The position numbers and the translations under genes are program-made. 64,000 bases of DNA from Escherichia coli 042 (GTDB lineage Bacteria > Pseudomonadota > Gammaproteobacteria > Enterobacterales > Enterobacteriaceae), in NCBI RefSeq assembly GCF_000027125.1, contig NC_017626.1. One strand, 5' to 3'. The notes under the pieces are model-generated. The model saw nothing but the letters and a program-made list of their open reading frames with translations. It was not told the origin of the DNA and ran no database searches. This document shows, one piece after another, positions 1 to 23,218 of this stretch (its first letter is position 1; each line of letters begins with the position of its first letter).

Positions 1-248
1 TCACGCTCAATGGCGTTGACCTGGTCGCATTTTTCCTTCGACAGTTTCATATTGGGAAAAACGGTTTTTCCATCCACCACTGTGGCACCCCGACAGATGG
101 TCCATATGCCAGAACCATCGCGGTATGCCATTGTGTGGTTACCTTCTTTTTCGTCCAGAAACTGGTCAAGTATCTGAGGAGCAGATGCGCCAGCACCAAT
201 CAGCGCCAGAACGGCAGCCGACAGGCCGTATCTGATTTTTGTGTTCAT
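1..248 (-). CDS. rrrQ: Prophage lysozyme RrrQ, N-terminal part (gene continues beyond window start)
   Basis: Reverse translation begins MNTKIRYGLSAAVLALIGAGASAPQILDQFLDEKEG; start codon at 246-248 on minus strand; matches recalled Qin lysozyme. Confidence 0.8.
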   Translation of the reverse strand, partial: MNTKIRYGLSAAVLALIGAGASAPQILDQFLDEKEGNHTMAYRDGSGIWTICRGATVVDGKTVFPNMKLSKEKCDQVNAIER

Positions 249-556
249 AGATATTTATGATGAGGACGCTCGTGCTTATTGGCAGGATTTTCAATCTTAA
301 AGGAGTACTGATGCTGCAGATAAGACTCAACTTTTTCTGACAATTTTTCTGCTACTTCCAGGAAGACTTGCCGGACGCTCCTTCTGGCTGCTGCCTCATA
401 AAACTCCAGCGCAGCTCCTTCAACACGGTCCATGGCGACATCTAGGTCAAAAATTTCACCGTCAAAGCGTTCTTTGTCCTGTAAGGCTACAGTTACCGTA
501 ACTTTATTCTCAAAATTACGGACTCCTTTCACAACCAGTTCATAGTCTTGAGTCAT
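245..556 (-). CDS. ydfR: Qin prophage protein YdfR (103 aa)
   Basis: ORF track 103 aa; position between holin and lysozyme; stop overlaps rrrQ start. Confidence 0.65.
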   Translation of the reverse strand: MTQDYELVVKGVRNFENKVTVTVALQDKERFDGEIFDLDVAMDRVEGAALEFYEAAARRSVRQVFLEVAEKLSEKVESYLQHQYSFKIENPANKHERPHHKYL

Positions 557-560
557 TGGA

Positions 561-776
561 TTACTCTCCTCTCGCAGCCTTACGCCTGTCTTCTTTAATC
601 TTGAAATAAAGATTTGTCAGATACGTCAGCAGGCCAAAAACCAGGCTACCCAGCACACCGATTGCAGCCCACTGTGACGGAGTTACTTTATCGAGTAACT
701 GCAATGCCCAGAAACCAGCATTACCCGCCGATGTGCCATAGGCAACACCTGTTGTTAACTTATCCATTGATTTCAT
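561..776 (-). CDS. essQ: Phage holin-like protein EssQ (71 aa)
   Basis: Translation [28 protein letters not shown]... with one TM segment; ATG at 774-776; upstream of lysis genes. Confidence 0.8.
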
Positions 777-995
777 ATCCTCACCCCGATGTACACGGAT
801 GGTGCAATATGTTTGAAAAGATCGGAGTCTACGGGGTAGTTTTGACAGCACACGTTGTTCTCAACGGCGCTAAAAAAACATACACATTAAAAATGTGGGT
901 AATTATTTTGAAAGAAAGTCATATATAAAATAATAATACGAGAAATGTTTTCATATTTAGTGTACTGTATACGGCCATTTATACAGGAAAAGCCT

Positions 996-1166
996 ATGTC
1001 AGAACGTAAAAACTCAAAATCACGCCGTAATTATCTCGTTAAATGTTCCTGCCCAAACTGCACCCAAGAGTCAGAACACAGTTTTTCAAGAGTACAAAAA
1101 GGTGCCCTTTTGATCTGCCCTCATTGCAACAAAGTATTCCAGACAAATCTTAAAGCTGTAGCCTGA
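996..1166 (+). CDS. Hypothetical small zinc-ribbon protein (two CxxC pairs)
   Basis: MSERKNSKSRRNYLVKCSCPNCTQ...ICPHCNKVF; AGGAAAA SD-like upstream; followed by hairpin near 1230-1252. Confidence 0.4.
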   Translation: MSERKNSKSRRNYLVKCSCPNCTQESEHSFSRVQKGALLICPHCNKVFQTNLKAVA

Positions 1167-1529
1167 TTGATTTTATTAGTAACAAGTATTTTTTATATTT
1201 TAATAATATATTTAAAGCAGATAATAAAAAACCCGCCTGAGCGGGTTTGAGATTGTGGTGCTTTTTGTGGGAGTCATCCACTTACGCACTTTGTTTTGCC
1301 ATGCCAGCAGTTAGCTTCTGCTGTAAAACTATTCATGCAGCAAACCTGCACTTCACCACAATGGTTAGCATACTTTTCCTGATTAAGATTTTGCCAAATA
1401 TGCTAGCCATTGTTTCATGTATTGGACCTCCTTACTTTTTATTAAAGAGATCCAATATTCACTACTCTGTCCGTATCTCTACTCAGGCATCAGCCTTCTT
1501 CGTTATCGTATACAGACGAGCGATGAATT

Positions 1530-1745
1530 TTAATCAGTAATGATGACATTTGCTGCTGCAGGACCTTTAGCACCACTCTCTATAGAGAAGGTAACCTTTT
1601 GACCTTCAAATAAGGTTCGATAATTATCATTCTGAATCGCAGAAAAATGCACAAACACATCTTTACTACCATCAACAGGAGAAATAAAGCCGAAACCTTT
1701 ATCAGCGTTAAACCATTTTACTAAACCAGTCATTTTATTTGACAT
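1530..1745 (-). CDS. cspB: Cold shock protein CspB
   Basis: Full-length CSD protein [21 protein letters not shown]...; recalled identity. Confidence 0.95.
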
Positions 1746-2045
1746 TCTACATTCCTTAACTTGAGCCTTTCGGCATAAATGGTTTGCATAACAGAAACGA
1801 CTTCGTACTTAATTGGAGAGACTCAAAGAAGGAATAAGTGAATAACACCTGAAATGAGAACTGCTTTAGTAAACTACTTCGTATATCGTCTGTTCTTCAA
1901 ACCGACGCAATCATTAACGCATAGTTGAACATATGAAGCAATGTTTATTTTAGACATCCAGCCATCTTCAACCCCATCAAAAAACTATAGCTTTCTTCAG
2001 GAACGTGTGTATAGTGCGCCAAGTTATCAGTATTAAGGAATTTTT

Positions 2046-2258
2046 TTGTCCCGTAAAATGACAGGAATTGTCAAAACCTTTGACGGCAAAAGCGGCAAGG
2101 GTCTTATCACCCCATCCGATGGTCGTATCGATGTCCAGCTTCATGTTTCAGCGCTCAATCTCCGCGATGCAGAAGAAATTACCACCGGATTACGCGTGGA
2201 ATTTTGCCGGATAAATGGTCTGCGTGGCCCTTCAGCTGCCAATGTTTACCTTTCATGA
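2046..2258 (+). CDS. cspF: Cold shock protein CspF (TTG start)
   Basis: [23 protein letters not shown]...; divergent from cspB as in K-12. Confidence 0.9.
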
Positions 2259-2550
2259 GCTATATTAAAGCTTTAATTTCAGGCCCCATCGGATCACACA
2301 TGGAGAGTTTTTATGAATAACCCCGTCTGTCTTGATGACTGGTTGATTGGCTTTAAAAGCTTATGCTGTACTTTGGCCGTAATAGCTCTGCTAATAATAT
2401 AATAAGCAGACTCATTGTGTTTAGGGACATTGTACTGGAAGAAAACATTTTAAACATCAGGCAAATAACCAAGTCACCAGCTAAATAATAAGTTAACAGA
2501 CATGAGTCCCGGGATGAGATTCAACATTACCATTGCCCCATTTAAAGCAC

Positions 2551-2574
2551 AAAACCCGCTCATCAGCGGGTTTT
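2551..2574. terminator. Bidirectional Rho-independent terminator between cspF and quuQ
   Basis: aaaaCCCGCTcatcAGCGGGtttt hairpin flanked by A and T tracts. Confidence 0.55.
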
Positions 2575-2679
2575 CTACTTTTTCTTAACGTCGGGTATAC
2601 AAAGCCCATCGTTGAAAAAATTTTATCCATATTTTTTGAAAAATGCAAACATCATGTCGCCATCTTCAGCAAAAATCAT

Positions 2680-3432
2680 TTATCTCGTCACCTTCCTCAA
2701 TTGCGCTTCCGCGTATGCTTCTTCCTGCCAGCACTTTGTTACCAGTTTACCAATGACGTCCGCATACCCCTTATACCACTGATAATCGGTCAGGTCTGGT
2801 ACCAGCTTCTGGACATGACGTCGTGCCAGCGTGGTCGGTAAACGACTAAACCGGTTTCCATTACAACGCCCACAAATCTTATATACCGGTACGCCATGAA
2901 ACCGGGTTCTTTTTTCATCCAGAACAATCCCTTTACCCTTACACCCTCTGCACGCTGTGCTGGCTTCGCCCTTACCATGGCAATGCTGACATAGTTCCTT
3001 CACCCATTCTTCCTTGATTACAGATTCCCCGCGTCTGTAGTGTTTCACCACTTCGCGCAATACATTATAAAATCCCGTACCTGAACAATGCTCACAGCGA
3101 GCCTTACTTGCCGCAGACCTGGAGTAATCAGCAAAGGCAAAACTCACGAGGTAAGGAATAATCTGTAACCGGATTTCTTCACTCAATTTGTTCAATGTCG
3201 GGTTATCCAGTGCCATCGCGTAATTTAGCAGGCCTTCAATCGCAAACTGAGGGTCCTGAACACCAACTTTTGCCAGAAATAAGGCCAACCCAAGTGGTGC
3301 TTTCGACTGCACCATCCCCTGCGCTGCCATTACATCCGTAATTGTTAAACAACCGGTGCCTGTCGCTGGAGCGTCATCGCTCAATTTTGGAGATTTTGGG
3401 GAGTAATATTTTGGTAAGGCTTCAAGGTTCAT
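2680..3432 (-). CDS. quuQ: Late-gene antiterminator Q homolog QuuQ (250 aa from MNLEALPKYY)
   Basis: Cys-rich zinc-binding region CEHCSGTG...CQHCHGKG...CRGCKGKG...CGRCNG typical of Q proteins; recalled identity. Confidence 0.85.
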   Translation of the reverse strand: MNLEALPKYYSPKSPKLSDDAPATGTGCLTITDVMAAQGMVQSKAPLGLALFLAKVGVQDPQFAIEGLLNYAMALDNPTLNKLSEEIRLQIIPYLVSFAFADYSRSAASKARCEHCSGTGFYNVLREVVKHYRRGESVIKEEWVKELCQHCHGKGEASTACRGCKGKGIVLDEKRTRFHGVPVYKICGRCNGNRFSRLPTTLARRHVQKLVPDLTDYQWYKGYADVIGKLVTKCWQEEAYAEAQLRKVTR

Positions 3433-3445
3433 GCTCGTTCTCCAC

Positions 3446-4534
3446 TTACGCCAGTACGCCAATTGCCAGCGCGCGATCGATAAAACGAAATATCAGCTCC
3501 AGTTGGGAGCCATACTTATCTTCAAATGCCACTGTATCCGTATGCAGCTCGTTGTGATGCTTTCTGCACAAAGGCAACACAAAGAGATCATGTGCTTTTG
3601 TTCCCATTCCGCCCTGCCCGTGACCAATCAGATGATGCGGATCGTCGGCTGGCATACCGCAGCAAGCACACGGCTGTGTCTTAACCCAACGTGTGTATTT
3701 CTCCTTAACCCAGCGGCGACGTTTAGGCAGCTTCATGAAAGATTCCGGAGACTCTGGATCAACGGTGATGCTTACCACCGTCTTTTCCTGTGGTGATTTT
3801 TGTTGCTGGTGGGCGTAAGGCAACGGTGCAAGATTTTTTGTGCGTTGTTTCAATATGCTGGTGGCGGTCTGCTCTCCCGGTACGATGTCGCTTTCGCGGT
3901 ACACCGAGCAGATTTTTTCCGCTGGTAATCCCAGCGAACGACGCGATACAGCCTCAGGTAGTGCATCCACCACCTGATTGCAGACCGCCCACCAGGATAA
4001 TTCAGCCAAAGATAATTCCCGCTCCTGCGTACCGCTTATTGCGTGACGGATGACGTCAATCACCCATGCTGTCAGATTTTGTTGAGCAAGCAGCTCCAGT
4101 GATTCCGATGTCTGGTCACGCAGTTGGTTGTCGCAGTGCCAGCACAACACCATTGCGCCGGTACCATAACGGTGAATGACTGTTTCAGTGTGATGGTAAT
4201 CGCCATTAGGCCACTGGCAGGATGTAACATGACGTAATAGCCAGTCGGACAATGCGCCAACGCCGCCAGCAGCACGAATCACCCGTTCGTTACTAAAAAA
4301 CGGCAGCAATGTTTTGTCTTCCGCCAGCGGCTGGCGAACGGCAGGAACGACTCCGGATGGCAGATTACGCATGCTTTTTGGTTCCGGTTCCACCAGCACT
4401 CGAGGATTATGAAATATCTGTATGGATTCACGGCCCGGCTTAAGGACCACCAGCCCAAGCTCAGGCACCAGAACAGGTCTAAGTAATACCCGCACGTTAC
4501 CTCCAGATCCGTTGCTGGAAAGTGCGGGACGCAC
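3446..4534 (-). CDS. ydfU: Qin prophage DUF968-type protein YdfU (start may be internal to ORF)
   Basis: 362-aa ORF with CACCGMPADDPHHLIGHGQGGMGTKAHD motif; recalled YdfU. Confidence 0.75.
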   Translation of the reverse strand: MRPALSSNGSGGNVRVLLRPVLVPELGLVVLKPGRESIQIFHNPRVLVEPEPKSMRNLPSGVVPAVRQPLAEDKTLLPFFSNERVIRAAGGVGALSDWLLRHVTSCQWPNGDYHHTETVIHRYGTGAMVLCWHCDNQLRDQTSESLELLAQQNLTAWVIDVIRHAISGTQERELSLAELSWWAVCNQVVDALPEAVSRRSLGLPAEKICSVYRESDIVPGEQTATSILKQRTKNLAPLPYAHQQQKSPQEKTVVSITVDPESPESFMKLPKRRRWVKEKYTRWVKTQPCACCGMPADDPHHLIGHGQGGMGTKAHDLFVLPLCRKHHNELHTDTVAFEDKYGSQLELIFRFIDRALAIGVLA

Positions 4535-4775
4535 GTGGTGGGCGTTCGGAATAAGGCAGCCTGACAGAGATTATCCAGTGCCGATAGTCGAGACTGAGAG
4601 CTTTCTTAACCTCGAACCCGCGCCTGCGGTAAGAATGAATCAGCCATTCGGCCTGTTCTGCAGTGCATGGAGGGTGCTGGAACCATTCAGACTTGAATGC
4701 GTGAGAATACCGCCCGTGCGTGCAGGCAAGAACGGGCGAATTATCAGAATTGTAATATTTTGCGTTGCGTGCCAT
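4497..4775 (-). CDS. rem: Small prophage protein Rem-like
   Basis: 92-aa ORF immediately upstream of ydfU in K-12 order; identity by position and recollection only. Confidence 0.45.
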   Translation of the reverse strand: MARNAKYYNSDNSPVLACTHGRYSHAFKSEWFQHPPCTAEQAEWLIHSYRRRGFEVKKALSLDYRHWIISVRLPYSERPPRASRTFQQRIWR

Positions 4776-4841
4776 CGGTTTTCTCCGGTGGCACGGTGTT
4801 ACTCAGCGGGAGTTCAGCCCCGCGCAAGATTGTAGATGAGT

Positions 4842-5093
4842 TTATTCTCCTGAAAAAGCAGAAAAGCCAGCTTTTATTCCGATCTCTTTCAATGCCTGTA
4901 ATGAAGTGACAAACTCACCTTCGCGCAAGATAAATCCGTCCGTGACCCGAGCATCCACAAAATTAATTAACGCAGCCCCATTCTTTCGCAAACACATAAT
5001 GCGGTAATGACTAACAAGATTTCCATTTTCAACGCACACAGCATAGAGGCCATCTTCACAAAAAATTTTACGCAGTTCTTCGATGTTCATCAT
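4842..5093 (-). CDS. Hypothetical protein (83 aa)
   Basis: ORF only; lies downstream of the hokD terminator; no recognisable motif. Confidence 0.3.
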   Translation of the reverse strand: MMNIEELRKIFCEDGLYAVCVENGNLVSHYRIMCLRKNGAALINFVDARVTDGFILREGEFVTSLQALKEIGIKAGFSAFSGE

Positions 5094-5220
5094 CAGAATC
5101 CTTCCGGATAATTAGCTCTCCCCTTTAAGGGACCATCCCTCTTATCCCTGCGCGCTACTTAAGTATTTTTGATTCTATTCCGGCACCGTCCAGAACTTCA
5201 AACGCGTTGAAAATAAAAAC

Positions 5221-5240
5221 AAAAACCCGCCGAAGCGGGT
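5221..5240 (-). terminator. Rho-independent terminator downstream of hokD
   Basis: ACCCGCcgaaGCGGGT hairpin preceded on + strand by A-tract (T-tract on minus strand). Confidence 0.5.
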
Positions 5241-5309
5241 TAAGTGCGGGTGCGTTGAGGATGCCTGCCACATCAGAGGTGGCGAGGGATTTCTCCCCCG
5301 CCGGGTCTC

Positions 5310-5465
5310 TTACTCCTCAGGTTCGTAAGCTGTGAAGACAGCGACCTCCGTCTGGCCGGTTCGGATTCGTACCTCGCAGAGGTCTTTCCTCGTTACCAGT
5401 GCCGTCACTATGACGGTTAAACAGATGACGATCAGGGCGATTAACATCGCCTTTTGCTGCTTCAT
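5310..5465 (-). CDS. hokD: Hok-family small membrane toxin HokD (51 aa)
   Basis: Hand translation MKQQKAMLIALIVICLTVIVTALVTRKDLCEVRIRTGQTEVAVFTAYEPEE; below ORF-track size cutoff. Confidence 0.85.
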   Translation of the reverse strand: MKQQKAMLIALIVICLTVIVTALVTRKDLCEVRIRTGQTEVAVFTAYEPEE

Positions 5466-5536
5466 AGCCTGCTTCTCCTGTCAACGCAAAGCAGAAGTGT
5501 CACCTTCGGTGCGAAACAGAGATGTCATGCTTTGGT

Positions 5537-5824
5537 TCAGAGAATGCGTTTGACCGCCTCGCTATATACTTCCGAGCGTTCTCTTTTCCCAACAGAAATC
5601 ACGAAAACGACAACTTTCTCGTCTATAACCTGGTATACAAGGCGATAGCCTGAAGACCGGAGCTTAATCTTGTAACAATCAGGCATACCACGGAGCTTGT
5701 TTGCTTCAATCCGGGGTGACTCAAGTACTTCAACCAGCTTCTTTTTCAACTGTTCACGTACCGTCGAGCCCAGCTTTCGCCATTCCTTTAGTGCCCGCTC
5801 GTCAAAATCCAGAAAATACGCCAT
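5537..5824 (-). CDS. relE: mRNA interferase toxin RelE
   Basis: 95 aa MAYFLDFDERALKEWRKLGSTVREQLKKKL...; recalled identity. Confidence 0.95.
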   Translation of the reverse strand: MAYFLDFDERALKEWRKLGSTVREQLKKKLVEVLESPRIEANKLRGMPDCYKIKLRSSGYRLVYQVIDEKVVVFVISVGKRERSEVYSEAVKRIL

Positions 5825-6063
5825 CAGAGTTCATCCAGCGTCACACGTACTGGCTTAGGATTACGAAGCCGTTCTTTCACTATCTCCACAAGTTCAGCAT
5901 CTTCATCACTCAGGAGTGTCTGTTTGAACGGCAAGCGTTCATTGTCAGCGATATACTCGAGCATGAGACGAAGCGCTTCAGAAGGAGTTACACCCATTTT
6001 TTCAAGCGCGGCGTAAGAACGCGCTTTAAGTTCATCGTCAATACGCAGGTTAATGCTACCCAT
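5824..6063 (-). CDS. relB: Antitoxin RelB
   Basis: 79 aa MGSINLRIDDELKARSYAALEKMGVTPSEALR...; overlaps relE start by 1 nt. Confidence 0.95.
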   Translation of the reverse strand: MGSINLRIDDELKARSYAALEKMGVTPSEALRLMLEYIADNERLPFKQTLLSDEDAELVEIVKERLRNPKPVRVTLDEL

Positions 6064-6087
6064 GTCTTACACCTCTTGTAATTACAA

Positions 6088-6393
6088 ATGTCATTACAAG
6101 TATCGCACTACAACATGCTTAGGGCAAGTCACGAAGGAAGTCAGAAAGTAGTCGTAAGAACGGTGATCACTGTCCGCTTTGTGCCAGGAGCAGCCATTGC
6201 TAAGTCCATCCTGTATTGTGCAGGTCAGCTCGTTTTTAAAGAGTCCGGCCATCATCTTACTGGTACAGACACCATATACTTTGTGACGGTCAGGCTACAT
6301 ATGCACAACTCAACTTATTCATCTATTTTTTGCTTTAGCATGTCAGTGTTGCTTTCTCGTCGGCGGGTGAGCGGTGACCTGACCTGTCGATAA
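6088..6393 (+). CDS. ydfV: Uncharacterised Qin protein YdfV-like (101 aa)
   Basis: 101-aa ORF at the K-12 position between relB and flxA; identity by length and position. Confidence 0.45.
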   Translation: MSLQVSHYNMLRASHEGSQKVVVRTVITVRFVPGAAIAKSILYCAGQLVFKESGHHLTGTDTIYFVTVRLHMHNSTYSSIFCFSMSVLLSRRRVSGDLTCR

Positions 6394-6595
6394 AGGAACG
6401 TAACACGTTTTATGCAACACCCGCATGCGGCAGAAAATTATTGCCGAACGTTTACCCCTGTCAACAAGCTTTACTTTCTGAGGCGCGCCAGCCCGCGAGG
6501 AAAACAATCTGAACATCAAACAATTAATGACACAAGAAATACGATTAAAGATTTTTTTGTGCATGCCGATAGTGCTTTTTTAAAAGGAGAAATCT

Positions 6596-6928
6596 ATGTC
6601 TGTCACAATTCAGGGAAATACCTCAACCGTTATTTCAAACAACTCCGCCCCGGAAGGAACATCAGAAATAGCCAAAATCACAAGACAAATTCAGGTGCTG
6701 ACTGAAAAGCTTGGGAAAATCTCATCGTAAGAGGGGATGACGACACAGCAGAAAAAAGAAATGGCTGCATTGGTACAGAAGCAAATTGAAAGCCTCTGGG
6801 CTCAACTGGAGCAGTTGTTAAGGCAGCAGGCAGAGAAAAAGAATGAAGACGCGACAGTTCAGCCTGATAAAAAAGAAGAGAAAAAAGACGATACAAATAC
6901 CGCTGGCACCATTGATATTTACGTCTAA
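6596..6928 (+). pseudogene. flxA: flxA interrupted by in-frame TAA at codon 45 (6728-6730); downstream 63-aa frame retained
   Basis: Frame MSVTIQGNTSTVISNNSAPEGTSEIAKITRQIQVLTEKLGKISS-stop-EG-MTTQQKKEMAALVQ... gives 110 codons in one frame, matching recalled FlxA length. Confidence 0.55.
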
Positions 6929-7364
6929 GTGACAGCCGTATTGTGGCCCTCATCGGGCCACTTTTCGCCATCAGCCTTTTCTTTAAAGACATATTATCTT
7001 TGTATCATTTCTGATAGTTAACATTACAAGATATAAGTAATGGACGCACTCCCAATTAGTCTATTTAAATCGCCACGAGTTTAACTGACAACCCATGATC
7101 AATTATGAATTGCAACTATTTCTGTAGTCACTTTTGTGGGGACAGTCCACAAAACTGCCAACTTCCGCTTCTTGCTCTTAGCGGACATTAGCATAGGCTA
7201 TTTACCATAACGCCTCATTACGCGCACCGCCCAGACTGACTCAGCGCGTTTCTGGCATATCCCCGGTAAAACAAGTAACAAACCACCCGAAAATGAACAC
7301 CAGAAACGCGACTTAAGAATCTACCCTATGAATGGATATGCACTCAACCGAATCGATCTTGGTT

Positions 7365-8678
7365 TCAATCTTTTTTATCGGGATCAGGCTTCTTTTTAGG
7401 TAACTTCGGGGGCTTAACTTGCTGATGACTTTGCGTTCGGCGCGTAAGCCAGGGATGGTCAGCTTTAGGTTTAACATAGTATTTTGAGCGTAAATCAATA
7501 CGGGCATTATCCACTCGTTCATGGACACTCTTTTCATCATCCAGTGGTATAGGCTCCGGGCCATCAACATACTTTTCCCAGCCCAGCGCTTTCCCGTCAT
7601 ACAGAACGTTAATTTCACCGTCAAAGTTCTCGCATACAGTAACAACCGAATGCCTAAGTCGATATCCCCGGCCCTCACTGCGTACCTGAAACGCACTGCT
7701 TTTGTACTGGAAAGTGAGATTTTTAGACAGAACGCGCTTCGCCTGTAGGCTGAAGATATAACCCAGTTCCTCTTCAGAATGGTGCACATCAAGATGAGCA
7801 TTATCAGTAGTACGAGGCGACGTAGCGAACCGGTTGTTATAGGCTTCAATAAAGGTCGGCAACCATGCATTTGCTGTTTCAATATCACTGATATTCTGAA
7901 GCCGCATTTCTTTGACCAGCCTGTCCTGTAGTGTCTGATTGGCGCGCTCTACCCGCCCTTTTGCCTGCGGGCTGTTGGCATGGATTGGCTCGATGCCCAG
8001 TGTCTTTATCGCACGAGTGAACTGGGTCAGCTCACCTTCCCGCTCTGGGTTATTTACCCTGAATATACTGTGTCTATCAGAGTAGAGAGCGAGCGGTACG
8101 CCATGATCATTAAGGTAACCCCGGAGGGTTTCCATGTAAGCCCGGGTTGTTTCAGCAGGCACAAAACGCAACGCCATCAACGCACTGGTGGCATCATCAA
8201 TGAAAACGATCAGTGTACATCTGGGGCCTCGATTTTCAAACCAGTCATGAGGTGAGCCATCAATCTGGATCAGTTCACCGTAAGATGGTCGTCGCATGCG
8301 GCGTTGATATATACGGGCAATTTTACGACGGCGTTCACGCCATAACCCCTCTTCTACCATCCACTTTCTGAGAGTTTCAACGGATAAAGATAAACCGTGT
8401 ATCTCGCGCAATTTTTCGCACGCAAACGTAGGTCCAAAATCAGCGTAACGGCCTTTGAGGAGTGAAATTACTGTTGCTCTGAATTCAGTAGAAAAGGAAT
8501 TATTAGGACGCTTTCCACGTCGGTGGGAAACCAGACCAGAAGGCCCTTCATTTCTATACCGTTGCACCAGACGTTTAACCTGCCGAATAGAAATGCCAAT
8601 GCGTGCCGCAGCTTGTTCCTGAATAATCTGAAGTCGGTGGAGTTCCTTATGACTCATCGTAACAGTCTCTTTGATCAT
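7365..8678 (-). CDS. DDE (rve-type) transposase, 437 aa, IS481/ISNCY-like
   Basis: N-terminal HTH (RIGISIRQVKRLVQRY) plus integrase-core DDE region (LIQIDGSPHDWF...LIVFIDDATS...SDRHSIF...GRVERANQTL); absent from K-12 at this position by recollection. Confidence 0.7.
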   Translation of the reverse strand: MIKETVTMSHKELHRLQIIQEQAAARIGISIRQVKRLVQRYRNEGPSGLVSHRRGKRPNNSFSTEFRATVISLLKGRYADFGPTFACEKLREIHGLSLSVETLRKWMVEEGLWRERRRKIARIYQRRMRRPSYGELIQIDGSPHDWFENRGPRCTLIVFIDDATSALMALRFVPAETTRAYMETLRGYLNDHGVPLALYSDRHSIFRVNNPEREGELTQFTRAIKTLGIEPIHANSPQAKGRVERANQTLQDRLVKEMRLQNISDIETANAWLPTFIEAYNNRFATSPRTTDNAHLDVHHSEEELGYIFSLQAKRVLSKNLTFQYKSSAFQVRSEGRGYRLRHSVVTVCENFDGEINVLYDGKALGWEKYVDGPEPIPLDDEKSVHERVDNARIDLRSKYYVKPKADHPWLTRRTQSHQQVKPPKLPKKKPDPDKKD

Positions 8679-9012
8679 GAAAAATCCCCCAGAGAATTGT
8701 CTGGGGACATTTTAGAATGGTTCAAAGGGGACATTACAGCTTGGTGTTAACAATAGCCTGCTTCTCCGTGCCTTTCGGCACGTAAGAGGCTAACCTACAT
8801 GTGTCTAGCATGAAATTGGCCTCAGATTAATGTTAAGCGTCTTGCAGGACGCGTAATGTTAACTGGGGCTTTTCTCTATCTGCCGTTGGTGTCCATGCCC
8901 GAGGCAGATAGCCTCAAGCACCCGCAGTCATTCTACTTAACTAAGATTTCCCCGCAAACCGTTTTTGTCCAGCACAGTAAATATCCAACTAAACCAATGG
9001 AGTTCGCTGTAT

Positions 9013-9192
9013 TTACCGCCAGTATTCAATGCACATGACCGCCATGAACACCCCTAAAAAAAGGGCATTTATATATCCAAATATTAATATCAAAACATCA
9101 ACTTTTTCCATATACCTTGCTGTGAAGATGATGGGCATACATGATGCGAACAACCAGAACGCAACAAACAAAAACTGCAATGCGTTTTTCAT
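9013..9192 (-). CDS. Small two-TM membrane protein (59 aa)
   Basis: AGGAGG 6 nt upstream of ATG; MKNALQFLFVAFWLFASCMPIIF...LILIFGYINALFLGVFMAVM hydrophobic. Confidence 0.45.
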   Translation of the reverse strand: MKNALQFLFVAFWLFASCMPIIFTARYMEKVDVLILIFGYINALFLGVFMAVMCIEYWR

Positions 9193-9446
9193 TATTCCTC
9201 CTACAATCAATGTGCAATTACATTTAAACACACCTCAATTTGGCCGGACATATAAATATCTAAACCAGAAAAAATCACTTACATAGCGTTACAAACTCTT
9301 TAGTCTAAAGGTTCATCGTAAAACATTCCCCATACTTATCAGTCCGTTCCGCGCCAGGTAGCTCATTGCCTTATCTGGCAACCTGTAATCAGGTTTCCGC
9401 TTTTTCAGTTGGCTGGTCGTTTAACCGACATAGTTAATCCATTAAT

Positions 9447-9734
9447 CTAGTTGCCGGATGTTGGTGGATTTTCGCGTTTTAGTTGTTCATAAAAGTGCAC
9501 AGCTTTAACCAGTTCTTCTGATGTAACTGGGACTGGTGAGGCAGTGAATAAGGCCTGAATTTGATAGTTCGGCCTGTCGTTACAATCCTCTTTTTTCGGT
9601 ACATATTTCCAGTCACCAGACCACTACTTCCCCTGAAAGTCCGTAACGCCTTTTTTCACGTAGCGATATCGCCATGCCACTGGTTTTGCTTGCCCCGCCG
9701 TTTCATGCCCTTCCTGATAATTAATCTCGCTCAT
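9447..9734 (-). pseudogene. Prophage ORF with in-frame amber (TAG) at codon 37
   Basis: MSEINYQEGHETAGQAKPVAWRYRYVKKGVTDFQGK-amber-WSGDWKYVPKKEDCNDRPNYQ... reads through a single TAG at 9624-9626. Confidence 0.35.
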
Positions 9735-10344
9735 TCATCGCCCCACTCATCACAATATGCTTCGACCGGAGTTTTTCCCGCTTCATAGTCATCACGCTAG
9801 GATTCGACATCAGCAGCACTTCCACCGCGTAACTCACCATAGTCCATTAATAGTTCATCCCGCTCTTCAAAACTGATGTTATATTTAGCTGAACAAAAAT
9901 CAGCCACTTTGTTCTTCCTCATCGTCTTTTATTTCGTGGTATGAGTAATTGCAGTAGTTAAAGAAAATTTCTTATGCTCCGTCATGAATTTCCTCAGGTG
10001 TTGCGTCATCGTCCACTTCGAATACATCCTCAAAATCTCCACCAGCTATTCCCGTTTCAATAATAATTTTGAACTTTCGCATTTCACTACCGCCCTTTCG
10101 GGCGGCCTCCTGATGTTCTGAGGGTGCAGAAATCCATCCGGTTAAGGATTAAATTTTATTTACAGAACTGAATTTAATTATTCAGATATACGTATCTGTA
10201 GCCTTACGAATCTACTCACTGGATGCCTCTTTCATAAAAATAATCCAGTGGGTTTTATCGTTTTTTCCCTGTTCGTTGACAGATAACAGGTTTTCTGTCT
10301 GTCAGTGCCAGAATCTGGCTTACCGGTATTTGCGTTTCATTCCA

Positions 10345-10701
10345 TTAAAAAATCAGAACGCCGTGCGGCCTCAACACCCGAAAGGCTTCTTTAAATCTCT
10401 GTCGCGAATCATCACGCCAGGCATCTTTATTCAGCCGTCCATATTTCTTTCCCATCCAGGCGTTATCACCAACACTCTCAAGATGCGGAGGGTCTAATAC
10501 AACCATCGAAAAAGATGCGTCTGCAAATGATAATGCACGAAAATCTGCGATAATGTCAGGGCTGATAATCAAGCGTCTCCCATTGCGTAATGTGTATCCT
10601 TCTTTTCTGATATCGCTGAATATCGCCCGTTCGTCAGACTTATCGAACCAGAACATGCGGCTGCCACAGCACATATCAAGAATGGTTGCCGGTGCACTCA
10701 C
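10345..10701 (-). CDS. Small SAM-dependent methyltransferase-like protein (118 aa), probably phage DNA MTase
   Basis: Motif I-like ILDMCCGSRMFW and motif IV-like VVLDPPH; nin-like region of lambdoid prophage. Confidence 0.45.
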   Translation of the reverse strand: MSAPATILDMCCGSRMFWFDKSDERAIFSDIRKEGYTLRNGRRLIISPDIIADFRALSFADASFSMVVLDPPHLESVGDNAWMGKKYGRLNKDAWRDDSRQRFKEAFRVLRPHGVLIF

Positions 10702-11120
10702 TGCGCCACGTCCTGAAAATTACCCTGATAGAAAGCCAGTATGCGCTGCATAACTTCGCTCTTCCGGCACTCGCGACAGATTATGTTTAGGCGACTGTCG
10801 TAGCGACGTATTTCTCCGTCAGGTGATGACCAGATAAGGTCCGGATCAACCACAGCAGGTTTCTTCACCTTTGCCCTCGAGAGTTTTTTGCGGGCGTTTT
10901 GCCAGTCCTTACGCGCCTGTTCAGAGGGGAATAACCCGTAGCCGGAGTTGTATACATCGCCACTGGCTACCAGCTCTCTGGCAAGAACGCTCATCAGATA
11001 TCTAGTCGCACCTGTTTTAGCTTCCAGTTGCCGTAACGTCTCACGGCCGCTCTGGCGCACGAGTTCCACCACCTGCCATTTAATTTTTTCCCGCTCTTCT
11101 TGTGTAAAAACTTTTGCCAC
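10698..11120 (-). CDS. Hypothetical phage early protein (140 aa)
   Basis: ORF in operon with replication gene; stop overlaps downstream gene start. Confidence 0.45.
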   Translation of the reverse strand: MAKVFTQEEREKIKWQVVELVRQSGRETLRQLEAKTGATRYLMSVLARELVASGDVYNSGYGLFPSEQARKDWQNARKKLSRAKVKKPAVVDPDLIWSSPDGEIRRYDSRLNIICRECRKSEVMQRILAFYQGNFQDVAQ

Positions 11121-11160
11121 AAGTCCCCCTTAAAATTACCTCATGACCTGAAATCAACAC

Positions 11161-12126
11161 TTATCCTCTGAAACCAGGCGGAATTTCTGTATCCGGTTCA
11201 GAAATATGATTAACACAACGCTGTACAGGTGAACGTCCCAGGCGGATGACCAGTTCGTCCCATTTTTCGCGGAGCTTTGACGGGCTCATGATGTTTTTGA
11301 CCCAGAATGGATCTCGCTGAACCCGACCAAACATTTCGCAAATTTGTCTGTGGCTTCTGCCATCCAGCATCCGCATTGTGCGCACGTCATTGGCCCAGGC
11401 AGTCCAGTTAGGCTCTTTTGGTCGCATGATCTCGCCATCATCACTGGCTGCCTGTTCGTAGAGACCCACGATCCGCCCCCAGATCCACTGCGCACACGCC
11501 AAATCCTCCCTGCTACCCCACTGGCGTTTTTTCGCACTAAACACAACCGCGTCGGAGTTCCGGGTTAAAAAATCCTGTTCAGTCGTCTGCGGGTCCGGTT
11601 GCGAAGCTTCCGGACGAAAAGTGTTTTTATTCTCTGTAGTAGTCTCTGTTGTATTCTCTGTAAGATCATCAGGCCATTTTGACCCGATGACATTGGGTCG
11701 TTTTGAACCAATGGAGCGTTTCATTTTGACCTCTTCCATCGTGTCATTTTGACCTGATGGAGCGGCGCATTTTGAACCGATGGATTCGCTCAATTTGCCA
11801 CCATCTAAAAGCTCGCTCCCATAGTTGATCGTGTAGAAATTGGTCATATCGCGCTTTGATTTATTGAGCTTTTCACAACGCAAAAGCCCCAGCGTTTTCA
11901 GACTTGCAAACGCGCGCTTTAACGTTGACTCTGACCAGAATGGGAACTGTTCCAGCCATTGTTCCGTTGTGTTATAAATCCAGCGAACACCATCACATTC
12001 CATGCCGGAGTTGGTATCTCTCAACCAGTAGTGCAGTTGTTGCAAAACAATGGCTTCGTTTAAGCCAATTTTCATTGCCAGCTGCGTGTTTATAACCAGT
12101 GGGCGTTCAGCAAAAAGAAGGCTCAT
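11161..12126 (-). CDS. Putative phage replication initiation protein (HTH N-domain)
   Basis: Position downstream of cro-like dicC; N-terminal region LNEAIVLQQLHYWLRD...WIYNTTEQWLEQFPFWSESTLKRAF resembles replisome-organiser HTH domains; start chosen at MSLLFAERP. Confidence 0.5.
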   Translation of the reverse strand: MSLLFAERPLVINTQLAMKIGLNEAIVLQQLHYWLRDTNSGMECDGVRWIYNTTEQWLEQFPFWSESTLKRAFASLKTLGLLRCEKLNKSKRDMTNFYTINYGSELLDGGKLSESIGSKCAAPSGQNDTMEEVKMKRSIGSKRPNVIGSKWPDDLTENTTETTTENKNTFRPEASQPDPQTTEQDFLTRNSDAVVFSAKKRQWGSREDLACAQWIWGRIVGLYEQAASDDGEIMRPKEPNWTAWANDVRTMRMLDGRSHRQICEMFGRVQRDPFWVKNIMSPSKLREKWDELVIRLGRSPVQRCVNHISEPDTEIPPGFRG

Positions 12127-12628
12127 AATTCCATCCAGCTTTTTGTTGGTATTGCTGTCGATACGCAAGTTTGAAAGCAATTGCTTTTTCTATAAGTTCG
12201 TCAGTTTCACGATCCACTACGGCAGGATCAGCAAAAAGCAGTCCGGACTCCACCACATCGCCATATTCTTTGTTTAACCCGGCGATCATGCACGTGATGC
12301 TTTTTCCGTCAGTAATTTCACGATACAACCTGAAATCATTAATCCGGATAGCCTCCATAATTGCAGGCACTAGCGCCGTGAACTTTTCACGCTTATCCCT
12401 GGTGTCGATAGCCTTCCAGCGTTCAAATATCTTCACTCGATTAACGCCAAGCGCTCGCTGATCAATCGCGCCACCTTCATATGTGACACGCTGAACATCG
12501 ATGTTCGGGCGCTCTTTCAAAGCCCAGAATGCTTCAGTGATTAATATCGTCGCCTGCTCCTGTGTCATTCCTGGTCGACATATCCAGGCATCCAGAGCCT
12601 CACGAGCCTGTTCAGGAGTGATTTTCAT
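12107..12628 (-). CDS. Phage early protein, YdfX-like (173 aa)
   Basis: ORF directly downstream of dicC in same operon. Confidence 0.45.
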   Translation of the reverse strand: MKITPEQAREALDAWICRPGMTQEQATILITEAFWALKERPNIDVQRVTYEGGAIDQRALGVNRVKIFERWKAIDTRDKREKFTALVPAIMEAIRINDFRLYREITDGKSITCMIAGLNKEYGDVVESGLLFADPAVVDRETDELIEKAIAFKLAYRQQYQQKAGWNYEPSFC

Positions 12629-12842
12629 TGTTCAACCGCCCCGCCCGCTTCGTCTTACGATATTCATCATAAACTTTGGGATCATACTGAAGCTCCCCGC
12701 CAGATGCCTCCTGTAGACGCATCGCGCGACCTTCGGGAACTAAATCCCCTTTCCAGCTATAAAGCGAAGCCAAACGAATACCTGCTGCTTGTGCAAGTTT
12801 TGTTTTTGAACCGAAATACAAAAGAGCGTCAGTTTTAAGCAT
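12612..12842 (-). CDS. dicC: Cro-like repressor DicC
   Basis: 76 aa MLKTDALLYFGSKTKLAQAAGIRLASLYSWKGDLVPEGRAMRLQEASGGE...; divergent from dicA. Confidence 0.9.
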   Translation of the reverse strand: MLKTDALLYFGSKTKLAQAAGIRLASLYSWKGDLVPEGRAMRLQEASGGELQYDPKVYDEYRKTKRAGRLNNENHS

Positions 12843-12925
12843 TTAAAACACCTTTATTGTTAGCCATAACTAACAAGATAGATGTTAACAAAAACATAGT
12901 CAATACGATTTAGCATTAGCTAACT

Positions 12926-13333
12926 ATGGAAACAAAAAATTTAACTATCGGCGAACGCATCAGGTATCGTCGGAAAAACCTCAAACACACCCAAAGGTCT
13001 CTTGCTAAAGCCCTGAAAATCTCCCATGTGTCTGTATCACAATGGGAACGGGGTGATAGTGAACCTACAGGGAAGAACCTTTTTGCCCTCAGCAAAGTAT
13101 TGCAATGCTCACCAACATGGATTCTATTTGGCGATGAAGACAAGCAACCAACACCACCTGTTGAGAAGCCAGTTGCCTTATCCCCCAAAGAACTAGAGCT
13201 CCTTGAGCTGTTTAATGCACTGCCAGAATCAGAACAGGATACCCAGCTCGCCGAAATGCGAGCTCGAGTAAAAAACTTCAATAAACTCTTTGAAGAATTA
13301 CTAAAAGCCCGTCAGCGGACAAATAAAAGATAA
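12926..13333 (+). CDS. dicA: CI-like HTH repressor DicA
   Basis: 135 aa METKNLTIGERIRYRRKNLKHTQRSLAKALKISHVSVSQWERGD...; recalled identity. Confidence 0.95.
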   Translation: METKNLTIGERIRYRRKNLKHTQRSLAKALKISHVSVSQWERGDSEPTGKNLFALSKVLQCSPTWILFGDEDKQPTPPVEKPVALSPKELELLELFNALPESEQDTQLAEMRARVKNFNKLFEELLKARQRTNKR

Positions 13334-13499
13334 CATCATCAATGAGTTATCTTTTACCACATCAATTATGTTAGCTATAGCATACAAAATCACTTGACCG
13401 ATATGTTAGTCATGGCTAATCTTGTTTGCATCAACACACCGCACGGTGTTCTCAGCAAACAGTTCCGCTACCCCAGCGTTAAGGGGAAATGAGGTCAGC

Positions 13500-13655
13500 A
13501 TGGATACTATCGATCTTGGCAACAACGAATCTCTGGTGTACGGCGTGTTTCCAAACCAGGACGGCACGTTCACCGCAATGACGTATACCAAAAGCAAAAC
13601 GTTTAAAACCGAAAATGGTGCCCGTCGCTGGCTGGAAAGAAACTCAGGTGAGTGA
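13500..13655 (+). CDS. ydfA: YdfA (51 aa)
   Basis: MDTIDLGNNESLVYGVFPNQDGTFTAMTYTKSKTFKTENGARRWLERNSGE. Confidence 0.8.
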   Translation: MDTIDLGNNESLVYGVFPNQDGTFTAMTYTKSKTFKTENGARRWLERNSGE

Positions 13656-13656
13656 T

Positions 13657-13785
13657 ATGGATTTCGACACAATCATGGAAAAGGCTTACGAAGAATACTT
13701 CGAAGGCCTTGCCGAAGGCGAAGAAGCTCTCAGCTTCAGTGAGTTTAAACAGGCGCTTTCCAGTTCGGCAAAATCTAACGGCTGA
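13657..13785 (+). CDS. ydfB: YdfB (42 aa)
   Basis: Hand translation MDFDTIMEKAYEEYFEGLAEGEEALSFSEFKQALSSSAKSNG. Confidence 0.75.
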   Translation: MDFDTIMEKAYEEYFEGLAEGEEALSFSEFKQALSSSAKSNG

Positions 13786-13814
13786 TAAGCGAAACAGCAC
13801 CGCGAGGAATCAGT

Positions 13815-14033
13815 ATGCAGAAACGAGAACCCGTCATCATCGCGCCAGACTATACCGATGATGAACTTTATGAGTGGATGCGCCAGAAAATTAATGCAGC
13901 GCAGGATCTGAAATGGGCTAATGAAGCCAGGGCTAAGCAGGCTGAAAATCTGTCCGCTCTGGAGCAGGATATCACCAATCTGGAAAAAGCAGCGGCATTA
14001 AGCATTGCCAGAATGATTACATACCCGCGTTAG
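13815..14033 (+). CDS. ydfC: YdfC (72 aa)
   Basis: MQKREPVIIAPDYTDDELYEWMRQKINAAQDLKWANEARAKQAENLSALEQDI... Confidence 0.85.
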   Translation: MQKREPVIIAPDYTDDELYEWMRQKINAAQDLKWANEARAKQAENLSALEQDITNLEKAAALSIARMITYPR

Positions 14034-14373
14034 TAGCTAATCAACAAAGCTAAGGTTAGTAATTAAGGAGTTCTCCACGGGTGAGGTGGAGTGCGTGCGC
14101 CGGACACGGGTGCGCATCCGGAACTGACAGTTTACTGAAAGGATATTTCCCTGAAAAGTCAGACCATAACGCGAAAGCGCACGGCGAGGTAGCTGGTTCA
14201 TAGATAGCCTGTCGTTAAATTTTCGTCGACCGTGCGCTTCCGGTTGTGGCAACCCGCGAAATGGCGCGGCGGTAAGTATGGCGGGGTTATTCCTTCCCCG
14301 TTGAGGACACCGGGTTGTCAGGTTGACCATACGCTTAAGTGACAACCCCGCTGCAACGCCCTCTGTTATCAAT

Positions 14374-14431
14374 TTTCTGGTGACGTTTGGCGGTATCAGT
14401 TTTACTCCGTGACTGCTCTGCCGCCCTTTTT
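14374..14431 (+). ncRNA. dicF: DicF small RNA (ftsZ-inhibiting sRNA of dicB operon)
   Basis: TTTCTGGTGACGTTTGGCGGTATCAGTTTTACTCCGTGACTGCTCTGCCGCCCTTTTT matches recalled DicF incl. terminator hairpin plus U-tract; boundaries approximate. Confidence 0.7.
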
Positions 14432-14600
14432 AAAGTGAATTTTGTGATGTGGTGAATGCGGCTGAGCGCACGCGGAACAGTTAAAACCAAAAACAGTGTT
14501 ATGGGTGGATTCTCTGTATCCGGCGTTAATTGTTAACTGGTTAACGTCACCTGGAGGCACCAGGCACTGCATCACAAAATTCATTGTTGAGGACGCGATA

Positions 14601-14789
14601 ATGAAAACGTTATTACCAAACGTTAATACGTCTGAAGGTTGTTTTGAAATTGGTGTCACTATCAGTAACCCAGTATTTACTGAAGATGCCATTAACAAGA
14701 GAAAACAAGAACGGGAGCTATTAAATAAAATATGCATTGTTTCAATGCTGGCTCGTTTACGTCTGATGCCAAAAGGATGTGCACAATGA
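14601..14789 (+). CDS. dicB: Cell division inhibitor DicB (62 aa)
   Basis: MKTLLPNVNTSEGCFEIGVTISNPVFTEDAINKRKQERELLNKICIVSMLARLRLMPKGCAQ. Confidence 0.9.
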   Translation: MKTLLPNVNTSEGCFEIGVTISNPVFTEDAINKRKQERELLNKICIVSMLARLRLMPKGCAQ

Positions 14790-14977
14790 ATTCAGCATTT
14801 GTGCTTGTTCTGACAGTTTTTCTTGTTTCCGGAGAGCCAGTTGATATTGCAGTCAGTGTTCACAGGACAATGCAGGAGTGTATGACTGCAGCAACCGAAC
14901 AGAAAATTCCCGGTAACTGTTACCCGGTCGATAAAGTTATTCACCAGGATAATATCGAAATCCCGGCAGGTCTTTAA
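14786..14977 (+). CDS. ydfD: YdfD (63 aa), small membrane protein
   Basis: MNSAFVLVLTVFLVSGEPVDIAVSVHRTMQECMTAATEQKIPGNCYPVDKVIHQDNIEIPAGL; start overlaps dicB stop. Confidence 0.8.
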   Translation: MNSAFVLVLTVFLVSGEPVDIAVSVHRTMQECMTAATEQKIPGNCYPVDKVIHQDNIEIPAGL

Positions 14978-15069
14978 AACAGTTCCGTAATAAATATCCG
15001 GTTTCATTCTTATATGCCAGCAATGGCAGGGATTTGTTCATCCTTAAATCTGTCATGAGGTTAAAACAA

Positions 15070-17541
15070 ATGAGTAAAGTCTTTATTTGCGCCGCTATTC
15101 CTGACGAACTGGCAACAAGGGAAGAAGGCGCTGTGGCTGTAGCCACAGCCATTGAAGCTGGCGACGAACGCCGTGCTCGAGCAAAATTTCACTGGCAATT
15201 CCTGGAACATTATCCGGCTGCTCAGGACTGCGCTTATAAATTTATTGTCTGCGAGGATAAACCTGGCATACCCCGCCCTGCCCTCGATTCATGGGATGCT
15301 GAATATATGCAGGAAAACCGCTGGGATGAGGAGTCTGCTTCTTTTGTCCCGGTTGAGACTGAATCCGATCCGATGAACGTCACTTTTGACAAGCTGGCCC
15401 CTGAAGTACAGAACGCTGTCATGGTTAAGTTCGACACATGTGAAAACATCACCGTTGATATGGTTATTAGCGCACAGGAATTGTTGCAGGAAGACATGGC
15501 AACATTCGACGGACATATCGTTGAAGCGTTGATGAAAATGCCAGAAGTTAACGCCATGTATCCGGAGCTTAAGTTGCACGCCATTGGGTGGGTTAAGCAT
15601 AAATGTATTCCTGGTGCTAAATGGCCCGAAATTCAGGCAGAGATGCGCATCTGGAAAAAACGTCGCGAAGGTGAACGCAAGGAAACCGGAAAATACACGT
15701 CTGTTGTTGATCTCGCCCGCGCCAGAGCCAATCAACAGTACACTGAAAATTCAACAGGAAAAATCAGCCCGGTCATTGCTGCCATTCATCGCGAATACAA
15801 GCAGACATGGAAAACACTGGATGACGAACTGGCCTACGCTCTCTGGCCTAGTGATGTGGATGCCGGAAACATTGACGGCAGCATCCATCGCTGGGCAAAA
15901 AAAGAAGTTATCGACAACGACCGCGAAGACTGGAAGCGTATCTCGGCATCAATGCGCAAACAGCCTGATGCCCTTCGCTACGACCGCCAAACTATTTTTG
16001 GCCTTGTCCGTGAGCGTCCGATCGACATTCACAAAGATCCCGTAGCACTGAACAAATATATCTGCGAATACCTGACGACAAAGGGCGTGTTTGAGAATGA
16101 AGAAACAGACCTGGGCACTGTTGATGTTCTCCAGTCATCAGAAACACAAACTGATGCAGTGGAAACTGAGGTATCTGATATCCCAAAAAATGAAACCGCG
16201 CCGGAAGCTGAACCATCTGTAGAGCGTGAGGGGCCGTTCTATTTCCTCTTCGCAGATAAGGACGGAGAAAAATACGGTCGCGCAAACAAACTCTCTGGTC
16301 TGGATAAGGCACTGGCTGCTGGCGCCACTGAAATCACAAAAGAAGAATATTTTGCCCGAAAAAATGGCACATACACGGGCTTACCGCAAAATGTAGATAC
16401 CGCTGAAGATTCAGAACAACCAGAGCCGATAAAAGTTACCGCTGACGAAGTAAACAAAATTATGCAGGCAGCCAATATCAGCCAGCCTGACGCCGATAAG
16501 TTGCTTGCTGCATCACGTGGTGAATTTGTTGAAGGGATTAGTGACCCGAATGATCCGAAATGGGTTAAGGGGCTCCAGACCCGCGATTCTGTGAACCAGA
16601 ACCAGCATGAATCGGAACGGAACTACCAAAAAGCGGAACAAAACAGTCCAAATGCGTTACAAAACGAGCCAGAAACGAAACAGCCTGAACCAGTAGCGCA
16701 ACAGGAAGTGGAAAAAGTCTGCACCGCCTGCGGTCAGACCGGCGGCGGCAACTGCCCTGATTGTGGCGCGGTGATGGGCGACGCAACATACCAAGAAACA
16801 TTCGATGAAGAGTATCAGGTTGAAGTTCAGGAAGATGATCCGGAGGAAATGGAAGGCGCTGAACATCCACACAAGGAGAACACTGGCGGCAATCAGCATC
16901 ACAATAGCGATAATGAAACTGGCGAGACGGCAGATCACCCAATTAAGGTGAACGGTCATCACGAAATCACATCCACCAGCAGGACGTGTGACCATCTAAT
17001 GATCGACCTTGAAACCATGGGAAAAAATCCTGATGCCCCGATCATCTCAATAGGTGCAATATTTTTCGATCCGCAAACCGGAGATATGGGACCGGAATTT
17101 AGTAAGACTATCGATCTGGAAACTGCTGGCGGAGTCATTGATCGGGACACCATTAAATGGTGGCTTAAGCAATTACGCGAAGCGCAATCTGCCATTATGA
17201 CCGATGAAATCCCGTTAGATGATGCACTGTTACAATTGCGAGAATTTATCGACGAAAACTCCGGTGAATTTTTTGTTCAGGTTTGGGGAAATGGAGCCAA
17301 CTTCGACAACACGATTTTGCGCCGTTCATACGAACGGCAGGGGATCCCCTGCCCGTGGCGTTACTACAACGATCGCGATGTACGCACAATCGTTGAGCTG
17401 GGGAAAGCCATAGACTTCGATGCCAGAACGGCTATTCCATTCGAAGGTGAGCGCCATAATGCACTTGATGACGCCCGTTACCAGGCAAAATACGTTTCAG
17501 TTATCTGGCAAAAACTGATCCCGAGTCAGGCTGATTCTTAA
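15070..17541 (+). CDS. ydfE: Intact YdfE-family protein with C-terminal DEDDh 3'-5' exonuclease domain (ORF-track frame 835 aa)
   Basis: N-terminus MSKVFICAAIPDELATREEG...; C-terminal motifs MIDLETMG, WGNGANFDNTIL, HNALDDARYQAKY; central CTACGQTGGGNCPDCG zinc ribbon and acidic linker. Confidence 0.7.
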   Translation: MSKVFICAAIPDELATREEGAVAVATAIEAGDERRARAKFHWQFLEHYPAAQDCAYKFIVCEDKPGIPRPALDSWDAEYMQENRWDEESASFVPVETESDPMNVTFDKLAPEVQNAVMVKFDTCENITVDMVISAQELLQEDMATFDGHIVEALMKMPEVNAMYPELKLHAIGWVKHKCIPGAKWPEIQAEMRIWKKRREGERKETGKYTSVVDLARARANQQYTENSTGKISPVIAAIHREYKQTWKTLDDELAYALWPSDVDAGNIDGSIHRWAKKEVIDNDREDWKRISASMRKQPDALRYDRQTIFGLVRERPIDIHKDPVALNKYICEYLTTKGVFENEETDLGTVDVLQSSETQTDAVETEVSDIPKNETAPEAEPSVEREGPFYFLFADKDGEKYGRANKLSGLDKALAAGATEITKEEYFARKNGTYTGLPQNVDTAEDSEQPEPIKVTADEVNKIMQAANISQPDADKLLAASRGEFVEGISDPNDPKWVKGLQTRDSVNQNQHESERNYQKAEQNSPNALQNEPETKQPEPVAQQEVEKVCTACGQTGGGNCPDCGAVMGDATYQETFDEEYQVEVQEDDPEEMEGAEHPHKENTGGNQHHNSDNETGETADHPIKVNGHHEITSTSRTCDHLMIDLETMGKNPDAPIISIGAIFFDPQTGDMGPEFSKTIDLETAGGVIDRDTIKWWLKQLREAQSAIMTDEIPLDDALLQLREFIDENSGEFFVQVWGNGANFDNTILRRSYERQGIPCPWRYYNDRDVRTIVELGKAIDFDARTAIPFEGERHNALDDARYQAKYVSVIWQKLIPSQADS

Positions 17542-17613
17542 TGTTCAACTGTCGCCGGTTGTGACTGGTATTCTGCAACCGGCGCTCGTCTGATGTAAGA
17601 GATAAAGAAATCG

Positions 17614-17865
17614 ATGAGCGAAGTAATCATGATTGTCTCTCCCGGCAAATGGGTATCCGAAGAGCAGTTAATTGCGCTGAAAGGAATAAAAAAAGGTACG
17701 TTAAAAAAGGCCCGAGAAAAATCGTTTATGGAAGGAAGGGAATATAAGTATGTCGCTCATGACGGTATGCCATGGGATAACAGTCCATGCTTTTACAACC
17801 TGGAAGAAATTGATCGCTGGATTGAGCGCCAGGCATCAGCGAGACCAAGACGTCATCTTACTTGA
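17614..17865 (+). CDS. Excisionase-like small protein (83 aa)
   Basis: Small basic protein immediately upstream of integrase gene. Confidence 0.45.
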   Translation: MSEVIMIVSPGKWVSEEQLIALKGIKKGTLKKAREKSFMEGREYKYVAHDGMPWDNSPCFYNLEEIDRWIERQASARPRRHLT

Positions 17866-17884
17866 CTAAAAGCCACACTAACTA

Positions 17885-19180: not shown

Positions 19181-19367
19181 TTTAATATTTATCAAATAGT
19201 TAACACGCATGACTCTTGAAATCCATAAATTCAAGCGCAGTGCCCAGCCATCCCGATACTGCTGCTTTCACCAAATCCTTAGTGCTTCTTTCGTGTTTTT
19301 CTATTGTCATAATGGTTATCTCTAAAAAAGAGGTAAGATGCGTACTACTTACTCGCCGTTATTGGTA

Positions 19368-20387: not shown

Positions 20388-20398
20388 TATCTTACTCC

Positions 20399-22621: not shown

Positions 22622-22655
22622 CCTGTTATTGATTTAAGGAATGTAAGGACACGTT

Positions 22656-23216: not shown

Positions 23217-23218
23217 CA

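Follow-up and report, generated by a model that had tools for sequence, protein, structure and literature searches.

The flxA gene of Escherichia coli 042 is interrupted by a single premature stop codon, and we consider it very likely that this is a genuine, inherited and lineage-specific nonsense allele, produced by neutral decay of a prophage gene that is dispensable. Within the 64,000 nucleotides of contig NC_017626.1 that were analyzed (the window), the flxA frame occupies positions 6596–6928 of the plus strand; it opens with an ATG at 6596, runs through 44 sense codons and meets an in-frame TAA at 6728–6730, which is codon 45. The terminal TAA at 6926–6928 is in the same frame as both the ATG and the premature TAA. 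In the list of open reading frames the gene consequently appears as two plus-strand pieces, a 44-residue frame at 6596–6730 that encodes the predicted disordered head and first helix of FlxA, and a 63-residue frame at 6737–6928 that encodes the predicted second helix and the charged tail. Reading through the TAA gives 110 codons that are the same as those of K-12 FlxA except at codon 45. As the alignment to K-12 MG1655 shows, a T at 6728 takes the place of the G of the GAA codon for Glu45 (G133T, E45*), and this G-to-T change is the sole mismatch to K-12 in the 701 bp spanning window positions 6400–7100. The K-12 gene is translated without interruption into 110 amino acids with Glu at codon 45, and since K-12 lacks the stop, the 63-residue product is not the normal FlxA protein. 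The sense codon GAA, the ancestral state, is found in the closest complete genome as well. The original prediction, which was made from the letters alone, had placed the TAA at codon 45 with coordinates that prove to be exact, and it had given the length of FlxA as 110 codons, which agrees with K-12. It had also named a K-12 gene carrying the same stop as a result that would overturn it, and the GAA codon of K-12 disposes of that objection.

The surroundings of the gene confirm that it was correctly taken to be flxA. In addition to matching K-12 flxA at 332 of 333 nucleotides, it lies at the same position as K-12 flxA (b1566, in the Qin cryptic prophage), flanked by ydfV on one side and the ydfW/transposase region on the other, in a prophage of the Qin type. 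The window, K-12 and the closest complete genome share the gene order relE-relB-ydfV-flxA-ydfW/transposase, which identifies the gene as the ortholog of K-12 flxA. The FliA promoter, the ribosome-binding site and the terminator are identical to those of K-12, and the difference lies in codon 45, GAA there and TAA here. The prophage carries lysis genes, cspB/cspF, an antiterminator, hokD, relBE, ydfV, flxA and a transposase open reading frame, beyond which follow dicC/dicA, dicB, an exonuclease, an excisionase and an integrase, and then the chromosomal rspBA genes. It is more complete than the Qin prophage of K-12, in that it has the integrase, the excisionase, a full exonuclease gene and an uninterrupted transposase reading frame of 437 amino acids. 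The closest complete genome (H41) is that of a human isolate from Tanzania, which is collinear with the first 25 kb of the window at 99.7% identity; the two differ there by 65 substitutions and 0 indels, with 12 of the substitutions in the prophage part (1–19,180). In this genome flxA is intact.

The signals that surround the frame appear to be in working order. A putative class-3-type FliA (sigma-28) promoter is found on the plus strand at 6546–6572, where TAAAGATT and GCCGATAG are separated by an 11-nt spacer; the sigma-28 consensus is TAAAGTTT, an 11-nt spacer and GCCGATAA. The pattern TAAAGATT-N11-GCCGATAG occurs once in the 64 kb, where shuffled sequence gives an expectation of 0, and it is identical to the FliA ChIP motif listed for K-12 flxA (PMC4183435). 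In that study the flxA RNA of K-12 stands at 280 in the wild type vs 2 in a fliA deletion (PMC4183435), and an older array study reported flxA to be 28-fold lower in a fliA deletion (PMC1935009). FliA dependence has thus been demonstrated in K-12, and the identical promoter suggests that it would extend to the present strain, in keeping with the initial description of the gene as a FliA-dependent prophage gene. A Shine–Dalgarno element, AAGGAG, can be read from the sequence at 6584–6589 (plus strand), 6 nt before the flxA ATG, and its pairing with the anti-Shine–Dalgarno sequence, at −8.7 kcal/mol, ranks among the strongest 1.3% for ATGs of the window. Downstream, a hairpin resembling an intrinsic terminator occupies 6943–6965 on the plus strand (GTGGCCC, loop TCATC, GGGCCAC, then TTTT), starting 15 nt past the flxA stop, and it folds at −17.3 kcal/mol (z-score −2.5). 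It was found by folding and missed by the consensus terminator scan because its T run consists of 4 T only. The gene 3′ of flxA is on the opposite strand, and the flxA unit is monocistronic. Given its own promoter and terminator and a next gene on the other strand, no neighbor is expected to be affected by the stop. No Rfam family overlaps flxA. A 104-aa open reading frame at 6678–6992 was considered as an antisense gene over flxA and set aside, as it is annotated in neither of the two annotated genomes examined. As a separate observation, a sigma-70-like promoter on the minus strand at 6437–6464, between ydfV and flxA, points back into ydfV; it consists of TTGACA, a 16-nt spacer and AATAAT, and with 11 of 12 matches it is near consensus.

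The allele is rare, and it is shared. A 701-bp query around flxA finds a match in 1,203 of the 5,426 complete RefSeq genomes of E. coli; ∼78% of them lack the locus. The best of these matches are 99.9% identical, none of the 5,426 genomes gives 100%, and flxA is intact in the best-matching records among the 1,203 genomes that have the locus. We then used a 41-base query centered on the T of 6728, which allows megablast seeding only if the T is present; it has no match in any of the 5,426 complete genomes (0/5,426), and the allele must therefore be rare. In a large protein collection, the exact 44-aa product is found on 64 contigs and the exact 63-aa product on 178 contigs. One of the four contig classes with the 44-aa product (L006) is, however, a contig-end truncation that carries the G allele, so that 64 contigs is an upper bound for the T allele, and the look-up is only partly valid as an allele count.

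Inspection of the contig DNA itself reveals the identical TAA at codon 45 in four independent assemblies: the ENA metagenome scaffold ERZ28598688 scaffold_7, the draft genome GCA_036599265.1, which matches the window at every position over 6,135 bp, the NCTC chromosome LR134238.1 and the draft genome GCA_012820675.1 (the change is found in loci L003/L008, L004, L005/L014 and L010). A haplotype table compiled over window positions 4000–9400 links the allele to a second site, as every T-allele locus has C at 8357 and all eight of the G-allele loci that cover this position have T. The shared TAA in independent assemblies, always with C at 8357, indicates one origin followed by inheritance. These data point to a T allele that would have arisen in a single mutation event on one prophage haplotype and then been inherited within a rare lineage. 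On the sequences compared, then, the change is an allele specific to a rare E. coli lineage, not to a single strain. The original prediction had called it a strain-specific nonsense allele; the nonsense allele stands, and the restriction to one strain does not, since the haplotype is present in several isolates and in a metagenome.

To gauge what the stop removes, the translated products were compared with the Pfam FlxA family (PF14282), which has a curated cut-off of 26.3 bits. The read-through protein of 110 residues belongs to the family, scoring 53.8 bits over residues 7–101; the 44-aa fragment scores 17.4 bits, under the cut-off, and the 63-aa fragment 27.8 bits, just over it. An AlphaFold2 model of FlxA built from the single sequence (mean pLDDT 71, with block means of 86–96 for residues 21–80) predicts a disordered head, a helix at residues 20–44, a loop at 45–49, a second helix at 50–85 and a disordered charged tail. 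Codon 45 corresponds to the first residue of the predicted inter-helix loop, and Met48 is located in this loop likewise. A stop in this loop would remove half of the predicted hairpin, leaving helix 1 alone as the primary product. With the flagellar cascade switched on, flxA would be transcribed from its intact sigma-28 promoter, and ribosomes would start at the ATG at 6596 and terminate at the TAA at 6728; the 44-aa peptide that they release would be without helix 2 and the C-terminal tail. A strain with the T allele would make no full-length FlxA, and FlxA function would presumably be lost with it. Restart at the ATG 6 nt further on may allow a small share of the ribosomes to produce the 63-aa C-terminal piece.

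The presence of that ATG raises the question of whether the gene is split rather than null, with restart at 6737 supplying helix 2 and the tail (63 aa) for reassembly with helix 1 (44 aa) into a functional protein. The arrangement is suggestive in several respects. The stop and Met48 both fall within the predicted hairpin loop, only 6 nt separate the stop from the ATG, and the Pfam cut-off is passed by the 63-aa piece. The ATG is directly abutted by GAGGGG, an SD-like run that together with the Met48 codon makes up a possible restart site at 6731–6739 on the plus strand; its anti-Shine–Dalgarno pairing of −7.0 kcal/mol is in the top 3.3% of window ATGs and ends at the ATG. However, an SD run that abuts its ATG is too close for efficient independent initiation, although it is compatible with termination-coupled restart. 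Furthermore, GAGGGGATG is also present in the intact flxA of K-12, and a restart-like site that exists in the intact gene was neither created by nor selected with the stop. Finally, the allele is rare and confined to a single haplotype. Restart at 6737 is possible, but we regard a split gene that retains its function as unlikely.

Neutral decay, the reading that we favor, is in line with the pattern of recent substitutions around the gene. When the window is compared with the closest complete genome, 7 of the 11 coding differences in the prophage (1–19,180) change the protein, versus 3 of 43 in the chromosomal flank (19,181–25,000), with a Fisher p of 1.8e-4. The mostly protein-changing character of recent substitutions in this cryptic prophage indicates relaxed constraint, and it is on this basis that the loss of flxA would be neutral. 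Among the 37 genes compared, flxA is the only one that is broken. Owing to its many Glu, Lys and Gln codons, 49 of the 110 codons of flxA lie a single substitution away from a stop, and of all possible point changes in the gene 5.7% yield one. For 11 coding differences in the prophage the probability of one or more nonsense changes is ∼0.39, and one substitution producing one stop is within chance for a neutrally drifting gene. Apart from this change flxA is identical to K-12 and shows no further decay, which fits a recent mutation and offers no independent sign of lost constraint. The allele therefore resembles the nonsense pseudogenes of cryptic prophages, in which a single premature stop interrupts a non-essential accessory gene and prophage substitutions are mostly protein-changing. 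It differs from them in no respect of kind, its only mildly unusual point being that the stop coincides with a loop in the predicted hairpin and has an in-frame ATG adjoining it.

A selective account can be built on the same gene, in which a null allele spares the cell the cost of a strongly expressed FliA-dependent protein, or removes some interference by it, so that nulls recur. The strong transcription of flxA with active FliA, evident from the K-12 measurements quoted above, lends this some weight, as do independent lesions of the gene elsewhere. An IS66-family insertion is present in flxA at about nt 88 in three loci (L009, L011 and L013) and at about nt 102–116 in another (L012), and in L016 the gene is joined to unrelated sequence at about nt 122. 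Like the window allele, these lesions interrupt the N-terminal half and leave over the 63-aa C-terminal frame, which annotators call as a separate gene in such assemblies; unlike it, they are insertions, whereas the point nonsense leaves the mRNA collinear. Two further candidates do not add to this count. Two NCTC assemblies (L007 and L015; GCA_900449375.1 and GCA_900449295.1) have an indel in a GGGG run of flxA that splits the gene into 47-aa and 63-aa frames, and as several scattered 1-bp indels are found across 5.4 kb of these assemblies, the frameshifts are probably homopolymer assembly errors rather than independent lesions. An IS1 in H1–H5 was likewise not counted as a disruption, and in H2 the IS1 is upstream of an intact flxA. 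Against selection, the best-matching records among the 1,203 genomes with the locus are intact and the allele occurs in none; relaxed constraint throughout the prophage is enough to explain occasional lesions, and in 11 coding differences chance alone would be expected to give one nonsense change. Selected loss thus appears improbable, marginally more so than the split gene.

The decay of flxA by a real mutation also has to be distinguished from an error in the record, with G as the true base at 6728. Such errors do exist in other public assemblies of the region, as the scattered 1-bp indels of the two NCTC assemblies illustrate, but the present change is a substitution outside any homopolymer rather than an indel, no other gene among those compared is broken, and the same substitution recurs in four independent assemblies, from differing projects and sample types, each with the 8357 marker; a sequencing or assembly error, which had been named at the outset as a possible refutation, is thus very improbable and is not upheld. 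Programmed recoding or read-through was rejected, as the stop is limited to one rare haplotype, all other loci have GAA, and there is neither a tRNA gene nor an Rfam overlap. A nearby suppressor tRNA was rejected, as the window contains no tRNA gene of any kind. The premature stop is UAA followed by G. UAA is an efficient terminator in E. coli, and it is not known to be used for selenocysteine or pyrrolysine.

The established biology of flxA is slight. A search of the literature for the function of "FlxA" or "FlxA-like" found nothing past regulon membership and a listing in one overexpression screen, and the only established property of the gene is FliA-dependent transcription. No obvious part in motility or in the synthesis of flagella has been ascribed to it (PMC4183435), no assay for FlxA is known, and in 2024 FlxA was still counted among the uncharacterised Qin genes of K-12 (PMC11551758). 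The allele is thus an ordinary nonsense pseudogene of a gene that is absent from most E. coli, and as such it matters very little. Public assemblies already contain it, with annotation either as two small genes or as a partial FlxA. For annotation, the 44-aa and 63-aa calls should be marked as one pseudogene. The combination of T at 6728 and C at 8357 is a convenient marker of one rare Qin-prophage haplotype, and should a phenotype for FlxA be found, the T allele would provide what is presumably a natural flxA null.

Several other elements of the window deserve mention. In the prophage, Rfam detects a full-length DicF small RNA at 14375–14426 on the plus strand (76.7 bits) and a full-length leader of the cspA thermoregulator type upstream of cspB at 1514–1906 on the minus strand (158.8 bits). 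The 437-aa reading frame at 7365–8678 (minus strand) is an uninterrupted ISNCY-type transposase with HTH and rve_3 domains. It is also open in the closest complete genome, with one amino-acid difference, where RefSeq splits it into a 49-aa "ydfW" and a transposase pseudogene; in K-12 only the ydfW/ydfX remnants of it are left. The split label looks like K-12 annotation carried over, hiding an intact transposase gene. Directly upstream of this gene, at 8752–8923 on the minus strand, is a sok antitoxin RNA (RF01794, 104 bits vs a gathering score of 59). A tblastn search with HokD finds no Hok-like frame near it, and the annotated hokD at 5310–5465 has no Rfam sok match of its own. The RNA may be the orphaned relic of a hok/sok locus. 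Outside the prophage, an island of ∼11 kb is inserted in tqsA at about 40,500–51,500 of the window, parts of which share only 77–93% identity with the nearest complete genomes. Judged by its similarity to L017, the island would encode an integrase, an Icd-like inhibitor, a RepA-family helicase and an SSB, together with a major capsid protein, a head decoration protein, a head–tail connector and a small terminase, and in this putative gene content the island resembles a capsid-forming phage satellite.
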